A stretch of 64,000 nucleotides of DNA from Escherichia coli O127:H6 str. E2348/69 (lineage in GTDB: Bacteria > Pseudomonadota > Gammaproteobacteria > Enterobacterales > Enterobacteriaceae): assembly GCF_000026545.1 (NCBI RefSeq), contig NC_011603.1. One strand, 5' to 3'. Positions within the stretch are counted from its first letter, which is position 1; the number at the start of each line of letters is the position of its first letter. A program made the position numbers. This document shows positions 20,301 to 23,300 of this stretch, piece by piece.

Positions 20301-23300
20301 TGTAAAACACCGGAATATATGGGGGCAGGAAGGCTGGTCAAAGAAAGGAAAAAAAGTATCCGGGGGCATTTTTACACCTATAAGAAATCGGTAAAAGGGC
20401 GAAAAAAGAAACGTTCGAAAGGTCAGCGCGGTTTAAACAAAACAGACAAAGAACAGAGCAAATCAGCAAAAGAAGCCTGGTTGATCTTCAGCAGAACAAA
20501 TGACTTCAGAGCGCGAGAAATCATCAAGTTATACAGTCGGCGAATGCAGATAGAGCAAAACTTTCGTGATGAAAAGAACGGACGCTTCGGGTTTGGTCTT
20601 CGGGCCAGCAAAAGTCGTTCAACAGGGAGAATTCTGGTTCTGAGCCTGCTGGCAACGTTGAGCACTATCGTAATGTGGTTACTCGGTTATCACGCTGAAA
20701 ATAAAGGGTTACACCAGAAATATCAGGTTAACAGCATTAAATCCAGGCGGGTTATCTCATATCTGACGTTAGCGAAGAATGTTCTTCGACACTCGCCATT
20801 TATTTTAAGACGAACAGTACTGAGCACAGTTCTAAACCATCTGGCTAGAACCTACCGAAATATAGTGCTGGTTTATTAGCAGTAATTTTGTGAGGATCCC
20901 TCAGCCCGGAGGGCTGCATTACCCAATATCAAGAGGGCTGAAAGCCGAGCAGATGCGGGAACTGCTGAATGGTCACTACATCAGCCACCGTAAAAACATC
21001 CTCATCACCGGCCCGACAGGAAGCGGTAAAACCTGGATCGCCAATGTTCTTGGCGAACAGGCTTGTCGCCAGAAAAACAATGTTCAGTACTGACGTGCAG
21101 GTCGCCTGTTCGAAACGCTGGCTCAGGGACGGGTGGATGGTAGCTGGCTTAATCAACTCAGGTTACTGCAGAAAACAGTGGTGTTAATCCTGGATGATCT
21201 GGAGCCTCTGACAAACCAGCAGTGCAATGACCTGCTAGAGATCGTGGAAGACAGATACGAACAAAGCAGTACCATCGTGATAAGCCAATTCCCCGTAGAT
21301 AAATGGTACGGACTGATGGAAAACCCGACGACAGCCAACGCAATCCTAGACAGGCTGGTACATAACGCACACAGACTGGTACTGTAGGGTGAATCAATGA
21401 GGAAAAAGAAACCGGTAATGGAAGAGGTGGAAAAAACAGGGTAAAAGAAAGATGATAAGTTAACGCTTGGAGTGATCGAACGGGATGCAAATCACTGATC
21501 GATGTTCCATGCGAATAAGTGATCGATCATGTCGGAATATGCAAAAACCCGAAATCACCAGTTGCCACATTGAACGGCGCTGGTGATTTCGGGTTCGTCA
21601 CTTTATGGATACCATCAACCCATTCCCCGGAGAAAGTATGGGCTGGCTAAAGTGTAGCGGCATTAAGAGCAGTTATTTAGTATTTTAATGAGTATCGAAT
21701 CTTTATATTTGCATCATTCCGTTGTTGGTCCGCCTTCTGACAAGCTGTGTTGGCAGAAGAAACGTCGTTAGCGGTTCCTATTTTGTTACTACCTAGATAT
21801 ATATCAGGTTTTTGATAATACATGGTCCCCATATTCATACTGGCATATTTGACACAGGTGGGAATGTTGCTGGTTTGAACTTCAATAACATAGTATCTGC
21901 TACTTGATACAGCCCAAATTTGAATTCCCCTGCCATTCTCGTCGACAAGCTGTGTGGTGCCATCCCCTTGATTTATAGTAGGTATTCCTGTTTTTAGAGA
22001 TACAGCTTTAATAAAGTTGCCTATGTTACCGTCAAAAGCAGAAGCGTTGCTCGCAATGAATCCATTAGTGGCAGCAATAATAGTTTGCAATCTGGATATG
22101 CCATCATTTACTTTTTTATTCTCAATTGAATTGTTATAAAAATAAAGGACTGCAGCAATTACTACAGCTGATAAAGCTAAAACCATTGCTGATTCTATTA
22201 GTGACAGACCTTTTTCTCTTGATTTATGTTTTTGGGTTGATGTTTTTTTGCTCATTGCTTTGCATATAGTTTAGTGGAATAAATTCTATAATTGAGCATA
22301 TCTCATTTGTAGATAAAACAGAGCAAAAAAATAAGTAAAGATATATAAAAAAGTGAACTGAACCGCCCCGGTTTTCCTGGAGAGTGTTTTATCTGGCGAG
22401 TAGGCAACCTGACGGCTGCGGCTTGTCATAGTCTGAAACTACCGCTATAAAAACAGACCATATCATTGTCTTTCAGGTGGTTATATGGCCCGCTCAGCCC
22501 CCCGGTTGCAATGGCGGGTGGTTCCCTGTGCAGGCGGACCTGACAATGAAGCCGGACTGTTTTTTCCCGACTTCGGCAGTGCCGCAGATTACTGTATGGA
22601 GAAAGATATTCCGTACCTGTTTGAAGAAGATGCCACCGGCAATTATGAAACAACCGTATGGATAGTCGGTGAGCCCGACGGTAATGTCACCATGATCCCC
22701 ATGCCCTGGAAAAATTTCCTGTCCGTGTGCACGATACATCCCTTTATCTGTCCTGAGTACGGCTCCTCGCATCTGCCCCCCTGCATAATTCATGCTTCCC
22801 CGTTTTGCCGATATTTTTCAGCAGGGAAACCGCTGGCTAAACTGGCTGGAGAAGCAGCCGGAAGGTTCAGTGCGTCCGGTAGTCATTGAAACGGTGACAA
22901 AAATCATGGCGTGCGGGACCACGCTGATGGGCTACACCCAGTGGTGCTGTTCATCACCGGACTGTTGCCATACAAAGAAGGTCTGCTTCCGGTGCTCCTG
23001 CCCACACTGTGGGGTGAAGGTTGGCGCGCAGTGGATACAGTATCTGCTGAGTCTGGTTCCCGACTGCCCGTGGCAGCATATTGTGTTCACGCTTCCCTGC
23101 CAGTACTGGTCCCTGGTGTTCCACAACCGGTGATTACTGGCAGATGTGGAGCCGGGGATATTCACGGTAATCCACACATGGGGCCGGGACCAGCAGTGGC
23201 ATCCACATATCCATTTATCGACAACGGCCGGTGGTGTGACGTCAGGTCACACCTGGAAAAACCTTCATTTTTACGCCCGTAAGGTGACATGTGGCGCTAC

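Follow-up and report, generated by a model that had tools for sequence, protein, structure and literature searches.

A second bundlin-family prepilin gene overlapping the EAF probe region on the adherence plasmid of enteropathogenic Escherichia coli E2348/69

A prepilin gene outside the bfp operon

The 64,000-nucleotide stretch analysed here (the window; contig NC_011603.1) is the EAF (EPEC adherence factor) plasmid of the enteropathogenic Escherichia coli (EPEC) strain E2348/69, and its positions 21400–22600 are 100% identical to pMAR7 (NC_010862.1) and to NZ_CP059841.1. The window contains the bfp operon (for the bundle-forming pilus, BFP), the perABC genes and an open reading frame (ORF) of 192 codons on the opposite strand, 7.8 kb away from the stop codon of bfpL and 2.9 kb past perC (Table 1). 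The G+C content of the ORF is 36.6%, compared with 38.4% for the bfp operon and 47.8% for the whole window. An identical protein is found on 153 contigs; it is labelled 'hypothetical protein' or 'PilW family protein' in RefSeq and 'major pilin structural unit bundlin' by some automatic pipelines. Judged by its reading frame, N-terminal motif, domain match and predicted fold, the ORF is an intact type IVb prepilin gene of the bundlin family, and it is called the accessory bundlin gene below.

The encoded protein begins with a class III leader peptide and a mature N-terminus of the form MSKKTSTQKHKSREKG|LSLIESAMVLALSAVVIAAVLYFY, with glycine at position −1 and glutamate at mature position +5. 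The segment EKG|LSLIESAMVLAL is present in both the ORF protein and BfpA, so the first 12 mature residues of the two proteins are identical, and the shorter G|LSLIE motif is common to the N-termini of the ORF protein, BfpA, BfpI, BfpJ and BfpK. Cleavage by BfpP is predicted after Gly16, a prediction based solely on the identity to BfpA at positions −3 to +12. Within this 15-residue segment, 8 of the 15 codons differ synonymously between the ORF and bfpA. Recent gene conversion from bfpA is thereby ruled out as the source of the identity, which was kept by selection. The likeness extends along the α1 helix, where, by manual count, 17 of the 25 leading mature residues match bundlin. Beyond the helix the proteins have diverged, with an overall identity of ∼31% and a local tblastn alignment confined to residues 10–66 (47%).

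The Bundlin family of Pfam (PF05307) matches the ORF protein over model positions 5–151 of 151 (E = 5.1e-6), and the N_methyl family (PF07963) matches it with E = 0.002. TIGR02532 gives 14.5 bits, below its cut-off of 16.3; both N-methylation models may be tuned to phenylalanine at position +1, where BfpA-type proteins have leucine. An NCBIfam scan returned weak GspH and N-methyl matches. When a profile of the family was compared with the PDB, bundlin (1ZWT, chain 1zwt_A) was the sole significant relative (E = 1.2e-9). An AlphaFold model built from the family alignment (predicted local distance difference test score, 81; predicted template modelling score, 0.72) consists of a 56-residue N-terminal helix and a sheet. 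The model displays the predicted type IVb pilin fold, with a long α1 helix, an antiparallel sheet and a D-region that the cysteine pair closes. Structurally it matches type IVb major pilins best, and Foldseek ranks the same three pilins at the top. Unique tryptic peptides of the protein include VNDGISR, LQTIIAATNGFIASNASAFDGNIGNFIK and YYVIEVQTSNIPTCVK.

The ORF protein resembles BfpA in its length (192 and 193 residues, respectively), its type IVb prepilin organization, the EKG|LSLIESAMVLAL segment, the bundlin domain, two C-terminal cysteines, low G+C content and allelic variation that falls mostly outside the N-terminal helix. In contrast, its C-terminus reads IKIRYSLKY instead of TYFMK, its gene lies outside the bfp operon on the opposite strand and lacks a Shine-Dalgarno sequence, and its role is a prediction. 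Members of the BfpA clade are 69–70% identical to one another and 25–31% identical to the ORF protein. The ORF protein also has allelic classes only 37–40% identical on plasmids whose BfpC proteins are 85–97% identical. A bfpA allele or allele fragment, an alternative raised in a preliminary description of the window, is ruled out by the ∼31% identity, the separate clade and the off-operon position on the other strand. The same description had proposed a 192-residue ORF at these positions, with the BfpA leader-cleavage region, an otherwise diverged sequence that keeps the C-terminal cysteine pair, and a location 8 kb from the bfp operon, all of which agree with the present analysis.

Similarity to the minor pilins is more restricted. 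Past the N-terminus, no significant homology to BfpI, BfpJ or BfpK was detected by tblastn, which returned N-terminal matches of 23–28 residues and one weak alignment (26.7% over 120 residues, E = 0.004). BfpI, BfpJ and BfpK share with the ORF protein a prepilin-like character, the G|LSLIE motif and the same plasmid, and their low-level incorporation into BFP has been reported (PMC4810605). They differ in being encoded within the operon and needed for normal biogenesis, whereas the ORF encodes a major-pilin-type protein outside it. A 2016 study of the BFP minor pilins names BfpA, BfpI, BfpJ and BfpK as the only pilin-like proteins (PMC4810605). The authors of the preliminary description were aware of no second bundlin-like gene described for EAF plasmids, and no description of a second bundlin, of a pilin in the EAF probe or of WP_000039533 was found in the searchable literature, which covered few subscription papers, so an earlier mention is possible.

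More distant type IVb pilins, namely TcpA of Vibrio cholerae, CofA and LngA of enterotoxigenic E. coli, and PilS of Salmonella Typhi and R64, are 11–17% identical to the ORF protein in structural alignments. Each of these is the sole major subunit of its own pilus, unlike the ORF protein, which is a second copy beside a dedicated major pilin. Other type IV systems are known to include additional paralogs of the major-pilin type as well as variable accessory pilins; for BFP, no description of such a protein was found in the literature searched.

Table 1. Features of the accessory bundlin locus in the window
Feature	Position	Strand	Details and basis
bfp operon	bfpA 2646–3227 to bfpL 13454–13903		
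perA start	17176		
IS4-family fragment	20283–20879	+	precedes the istB fragments
IS21 IstB helper-ATPase fragments	20890–21387	+	frameshifted; downstream of the ORF
Classical EAF probe fragment	20894–21946		1053 bp; restriction sites BamHI 20894 and SalI 21941–21946
EAF PCR amplicon	21437–21833		397 bp; EAF25 21813–21833 inside the ORF, EAF1 21437–21458 in insertion sequence debris; exact primer matches
Terminator-like hairpin	21540–21596	−	17-bp stem, inner stem-loop, then UUUUUG; 80 nt past the stop codon
IS630-family right-end remnant	21543–21677	+	inverted repeat ending ...CAGTTATT, then TA
Accessory bundlin prepilin gene	21677–22255	−	ATG start, 192 codons and TAA; RefSeq WP_000039533.1
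Globular pilin domain	21680–22045	−	invariant Cys134 and Cys172; variable patches in codons 74–83, 96, 115, 154–157 and 174–189
Mature N-terminal α1 helix	22046–22207	−	residues 17–70; Glu at mature position 5; predicted helix 14–69
Class III (type IVb) leader peptide	22208–22255	−	MSKKTSTQKHKSREKG, 16 residues; comparison with N-termini of BfpA, BfpI, BfpJ and BfpK
AT-rich native upstream region	22256–22355	−	∼100 nt; conserved among 88–100% identical alleles
IS91-family element	22356–23795	+	frameshifted transposase; NCBIfam transpos_IS91 at 22792–23133 and 23289–23795

The accessory bundlin clade and its variation

Homologues of the ORF form two groups, E. coli alleles that are 70–99% identical to it and relatives that are 33–42% identical, and a neighbour-joining tree separates all of them from the BfpA clade. 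Two motifs characterize the clade, VLY(Y/F)YN in the helix and NGxN(I/V)K(I/V)R(Y/F)x(L/I)x(Y/F) at the C-terminus, and both cysteines listed in Table 1 are invariant across the family alignment. The ORF protein is a bundlin-type prepilin with both motifs, encoded on the same replicon as a bfp-like cluster, and on these grounds it belongs to an accessory bundlin clade tied to bfp-like clusters. The preliminary description had called the gene an orphan. This view is not sustained, as the gene belongs to a conserved clade whose members are syntenic (convergent with perABC) or form the 3′ terminus of bfp-like operons.

The association with bfp-like clusters was assessed in PLSDB by combining tblastn searches with the ORF protein and with BfpC. 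Seven classical EAF plasmids (BfpC at least 97.8% identical) carry an accessory bundlin at least 96% identical to the ORF protein. The corresponding identities are 39% on three E. albertii plasmids (BfpC 96.8%), 37% on three E. coli plasmids (BfpC 85%) and 35–40% on seven plasmids with a BfpC of about 37%. A clade member is thus present on 20/20 enterobacterial PLSDB plasmids with a BfpC-like protein at least 36% identical, and 11 further plasmids (BfpC 30–34%) gave a major-pilin-type match only. Among 5426 complete E. coli genomes, bfpC occurs in six, and all six carry an accessory bundlin (three of the window type and three of the 37% type).

The genomic position of the gene usually follows one of two patterns. 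In a metagenome contig (L004), the relative starts 54 nt after bfpH and ends a compact bfpA-G-B-C-U-D-E-F-P-H operon; it lies 1.2 kb after bfpH in the E. albertii plasmid NZ_CP030779.2 (L005), and 10 kb downstream of bfpH in pTD225C4_139 (L006), where another bundlin-like gene directly follows bfpH. The latter gene is annotated 'branched-chain alpha-keto acid dehydrogenase subunit E2', probably in error. In the second pattern, perABC is convergent with the gene, as observed in the window, pEA18_3 (L007), pEC404/03-1 (L015) and pZ1323CEC0015-2 (L016). The convergent arrangement is also present where the allele is only 39% identical to the ORF protein; classical bfp plasmids therefore carry, at a single locus, no fewer than two allelic classes that have diverged deeply, class 1 (the window type) and class 2 (37–40% identical). 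The gap between perC and the gene, 2.9 kb in the window, is only ∼1.3 kb in pEC404/03-1 and pEA18_3.

The order of the operon itself is rearranged in the divergent bfp-like clusters, as far as gene content and matches indicate. The L005 locus (1179–3102 and 3590–12801) has four small genes upstream of bfpA that face away from a perA-like AraC gene, and two of the four match BfpJ and BfpL by tblastn; the classical bfpI-L genes follow bfpH.

These distributions bear on the possibility that the protein is a substrate of another machinery, such as the chromosomal type IVa system (ppdD/hof), type II secretion or a plasmid conjugative system, and that its link to bfp is mere co-location. The gene is a separate transcription unit that can lie tens of kilobases from bfp (∼24 kb away in plasmids of the L007 type and ∼21 kb in those of the L008 type), and the weak GspH and N-methyl matches would also fit such a role. 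The co-occurrence with bfp-like clusters is perfect, however, even though the plasmid backbones differ greatly. The protein has the same N-terminus as BfpA, with leucine at +1, unlike type IVa pilins and type II pseudopilins, and the protein has the bundlin Pfam domain and a predicted type IVb fold. Use by a machinery other than Bfp is accordingly considered highly improbable.

Selection was analysed in a coding DNA set of nine 579-nt class-1 alleles, the 585-nt P0008 and the 570-nt P0012. All alleles seen are intact, at 189–194 residues. Against the 70% identical allele (L010), the ratio of nonsynonymous to synonymous substitution rates (dN/dS) is 0.21–0.25. At intermediate distances, dN/dS is ∼0.05–0.1 in the first 60 codons and 0.4–0.84 in the globular part. 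Among the relatives, a comparison of the L007 and L008 genes gives 0.13. A pseudogene, the other alternative named in the preliminary description, is ruled out by the intact alleles, these ratios and the constrained N-terminal helix.

Among the eight alleles that are at least 94% identical, at least 24 nonsynonymous and 5 synonymous changes were counted, which at a site ratio of 3.56 correspond to an omega of ∼1.35 from small counts. Only one of the nonsynonymous changes falls in codons 17–73, where a uniform distribution would place an estimated ∼7, and codons 96, 115, 156 and 157 each occur in three states. An invariant assembly helix combined with discrete variable patches is the sequence pattern of an expressed pilin, not of a pseudogene.

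Variation is more pronounced in some relatives. Across six L005-group plasmids, the median dN/dS of the globular part is 1.43 and the N-terminus is still constrained. The same six plasmids carry a perfect (TTAGG)n tract before the start codon of the homologue (L005 13890–13967, L006 13929–13967 and L020–L023), with 14, 7, at least 26, 4, 4 and 5 copies and the last full unit ending 10–13 nt before the ATG. The tract looks like a slipped-strand phase-variation switch. No tandem repeats, and no (TTAGG)n, were found at the window locus.

A conserved N-terminal assembly module joined to a hypervariable exposed domain is also characteristic of the R64 PilV shufflon, the Neisseria pilE/pilS system and phase-variable pilins controlled by simple-sequence repeats, and the polymorphic (TTAGG)n of the ORF relatives, placed just before the start codon, parallels the last of these. 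Unlike these systems, the window locus lacks a shufflon, silent cassettes and a repeat tract, and its variation is allelic between strains, not programmed within the cell.

The distribution of the variable sites also concerns a role of the protein in the Bfp machinery other than as a surface fibre subunit. It could act as a low-copy priming or plug pilin, as a modulator of extension and retraction, or as a pseudopilus-like piston, as BfpI, BfpJ and BfpK affect assembly dynamics. The processing motif is common to all Bfp pilin-like proteins, the L004 relative follows bfpH where the classical operon has bfpI-L, and weak translation signals (see below) would fit low abundance. The ORF protein is nonetheless of the bundlin (major-pilin) type, with a likeness to BfpI, BfpJ and BfpK that is confined to the N-terminus, and L005-type operons already have bfpJ-like and bfpL-like genes upstream of bfpA. 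Patchy hypervariability and a globular dN/dS above 1 in the relatives are traits of an exposed antigen and would be unusual for an internal part. A non-fibre role is thus regarded as quite unlikely.

Flanking insertion sequences and the terminator-like hairpin

The gene is embedded in insertion sequence (IS) debris. The preliminary description had placed it between an IS21 fragment and an IS91-family element; both were found, but the IS630-family end that abuts the stop codon had been missed. Fragments of IS256/IS1414-like (19333–19785, minus strand), IS4-family, IS21 istB and IS630 sequences are stacked in the 2.9 kb that separate perC from the gene. On the other side, a 40-nt end piece of the IS91-family element (22356–22395) recurs in loci L008 and L012.

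The IS630-family remnant is ∼80% identical to copies in ∼1500 E. coli genomes, and its end was placed at CAGTTATT through alignments to full-length and partial copies. The target of IS630 is CTAG, with duplication of TA. Because of this preference, the native gene is read as ending in TAC TAG, with IS630 inserted at that CTAG and supplying the last base of the present TAA. The end of the reading frame is preserved despite the insertion. Other paralogs end in TAT TAA or TAC TGA and continue into unrelated sequence past the stop codon. The L010 allele is followed by a diverged copy of the same IS630 end, which marks the insertion as old.

The hairpin downstream of the stop codon lies within this remnant. 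The 151-nt hairpin region folds with −53.4 kcal/mol (z = −4.5 against shuffled sequences), and by sequence it has the conserved stem and U-tract of a Rho-independent terminator with an atypically long loop. A simple terminator scan missed the hairpin at 21540–21596 because of this loop. The hairpin probably terminates the ORF transcript. The strong Rho-independent terminator of the preliminary description thus stands as a hairpin with a U-tract, but not as the gene's own: a native terminator is ruled out, as the hairpin is part of the IS630-family remnant and, relative to intact IS630, arose by a local inverted duplication inside it.

The hairpin is conserved in the alleles of loci L011–L016. 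Deletions in pEC404/03-1 (19858–21510 lost) and pZ1323CEC0015-2 (21329–21543 lost) end just outside the hairpin and the ORF. The 41-nt palindromic core of the hairpin (21555–21595) recurs at L007 6780–6820, close to the class-2 paralog on E. albertii pEA18_3, and at L013 1236–1276, beside perC on an EAF-type contig. The recurrence may reflect either a truncated IS630 piece that was copied around the per locus or the mark of an ancestral arrangement.

Upstream, the AT-rich native segment that separates the start codon from the IS91-family element presumably holds the promoter and the 5′ untranslated region. As to a PerA-type site, which the preliminary description had suggested seeking here, the only feature found in common with bfpA is an AT-rich 12-mer, ATATATAAAAAA. 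It occurs exactly twice in the 64 kb, at 2527–2538 upstream of bfpA, which we take to lie within the PerA-bound region, and at 22341–22352 upstream of the ORF, where its orientation is opposite to that of the gene. The shared 12-mer is a weak lead, attributable to chance in AT-rich DNA or hinting at PerA control. No Rfam family reached its gathering score in 21000–23000.

The EAF probe region and the proposed role

The EAF probe and the EAF polymerase chain reaction (PCR) have been used since the 1980s to define typical EPEC. The BamHI-SalI fragment in the window is identified as the classical probe because published primers, placed 100 nt upstream of the EAF sequence and 82 nt downstream of it, match at 20794–20816 and 22029–22046, respectively (PMC4594896). 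The fragment consists of ORF codons 104–192, the IS630 remnant and IS21 istB debris; the overlap of the ORF with the probe and the PCR product had been overlooked in the preliminary description. The sole non-IS content of a probe region called cryptic in 2015 (PMC4594896) is thus the 3′ half of a second bundlin gene that is conserved and under selection. Approximately three quarters of the probe is IS debris, including the IS630 end with its ∼80% similar copies in ∼1500 genomes, and could cause weak cross-hybridization.

The EAF1 and EAF25 primer sequences, which we take to be those of Franke et al. 1994, fit the documented 397-bp product. The EAF25 site is exact in all fetched class-1 alleles that are at least 88% identical, and the EAF1 site is found in four loci only; it is deleted in pEC404/03-1 and pZ1323CEC0015-2, both of which keep the gene. 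The 1652-bp deletion reported in O119 (PMC4594896) maps to ∼19849–21510 and spares the ORF. With a reverse primer located in the ORF, 70/70 typical strains gave a product, of which 40 gave the EAF product and 30 a shortened perB-to-ORF product (PMC4594896), and the gene is therefore near-universal in typical EPEC. At the DNA level, class-2 plasmids do not match the part of the probe that stems from the ORF, which offers a possible explanation for BFP-positive, EAF-negative strains. The failure of EAF assays on some BFP-positive strains would then follow from the location of EAF1 in variably deleted IS debris and from class-2 alleles with 37–40% identity, and allele-aware primers internal to the ORF should perform better.

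The reading favoured here, to which a probability of about 0.5 is assigned, is that the ORF encodes a functional accessory bundlin of the BFP system that is transcribed on its own and is not required to build the pilus. BfpP would remove the 16-residue leader, and the BfpD/E/C machinery would extract the mature protein from the inner membrane. The protein could then co-polymerize with bundlin at low abundance through its α1 helix, as inferred from the 17 matches among the first 25 mature positions. In the fibre it would present a different surface, one that diversifies rapidly and could change the antigenicity, bundling or receptor specificity. The ancient IS630 insertion at the stop codon would supply the stop base and the hairpin that probably ends the transcript. 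The selection evidence and the perfect co-occurrence with bfp-like clusters make a BFP-linked function more likely than the preliminary description could know. If so, a fifth pilin-like gene is added to a model type IVb pilus thought to have four.

Several observations weigh against a functional accessory bundlin. A promoter scan found no sigma-70 consensus match on the minus strand upstream of the ORF, and no recognizable Shine-Dalgarno sequence precedes it, whereas distant paralogs have GAGGGA or AGGAGG. The nonsynonymous excess among the close alleles could be a time-lag effect instead of positive selection, as such an excess in very close bacterial alleles may reflect the time-lag of purifying selection; change counts in the clade of the window gene are small, and omega was derived from counts rather than site models. 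In work attributed to Stone et al. in 1996, the 14-gene bfp operon alone reportedly suffices for BFP in laboratory E. coli. Transcription of bfpA and localized adherence are reported for two strains negative in an EAF PCR that has its reverse primer in the ORF (PMC4594896), and the classical phenotypes therefore do not require the ORF. The literature searched yielded no data on a transcript, a protein or processing for the ORF. In the part covered of the differential-expression tables from an RNA sequencing study of E2348/69, in which bfpA and perABC are strongly induced, none of the tags E2348_P1_023 to 028, which are candidates for the ORF, is listed among the significant genes. The gene is not in the gene lists of a Ler microarray paper or a relA/spoT paper on E2348/69.

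Much of this, together with the IS debris on both sides and the near-neutral ratio among the closest alleles, would suit a silent relic, that is, a 3′ gene left over from an ancestral bfp-like operon, stranded among IS elements, unexpressed in classical EAF plasmids and kept by linkage to per and bfp. A relic is difficult to reconcile with a dN/dS of 0.21–0.25 over deep divergence in which every allele is intact, and constraint is non-uniform, the α1 helix being almost invariant even among close alleles. The BfpA-identical motif has been kept despite synonymous divergence, independent deletions end just outside the ORF and hairpin, and the family is found on 20/20 bfp-like plasmids despite extensive rearrangement. 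The relic is for these reasons judged unlikely.

The accessory bundlin interpretation can be extended, tentatively and at odds clearly below even, to the whole clade. Accessory bundlins would constitute a hypervariable second fibre subunit of BFP-type pili that changes the antigenic or adhesive surface between strains and is phase-variable through (TTAGG)n in some lineages. BFP-positive, EAF-probe-negative EPEC, long a puzzle, would then represent allelic replacement between class 1 and class 2, not loss of a cryptic fragment. The globular dN/dS above 1 and the polymorphic repeat of the relatives point to BFP-like pili that vary in antigen or phase, a matter of relevance for bundlin-based vaccine ideas.

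Further bundlin-like sequences extend the family. A 34% identical member at 14989–15552 of the Salmonella Macclesfield plasmid NZ_CP022118.1 (L009), ∼75 kb from the BfpC-like gene of that plasmid, indicates that the family reaches beyond Escherichia; it adjoins an NhaC antiporter gene, with AraC and LuxR regulators nearby. Additional paralogs or fragments accompany divergent bfp-like clusters (L006 3996–4616; L002 7467–8069, minus strand; L005 13227–13388; L004 17745–17957) and suggest a small multigene family. A third bundlin-like clade from E. coli (P0016–P0020; 191–199 residues), known solely from contigs shorter than 2 kb, has the N-terminus MEKGLSLIESAMVLTLAAAVTAGVLYFYN and the C-terminus ARIMYELKVQ and is 32–34% identical to the ORF protein.

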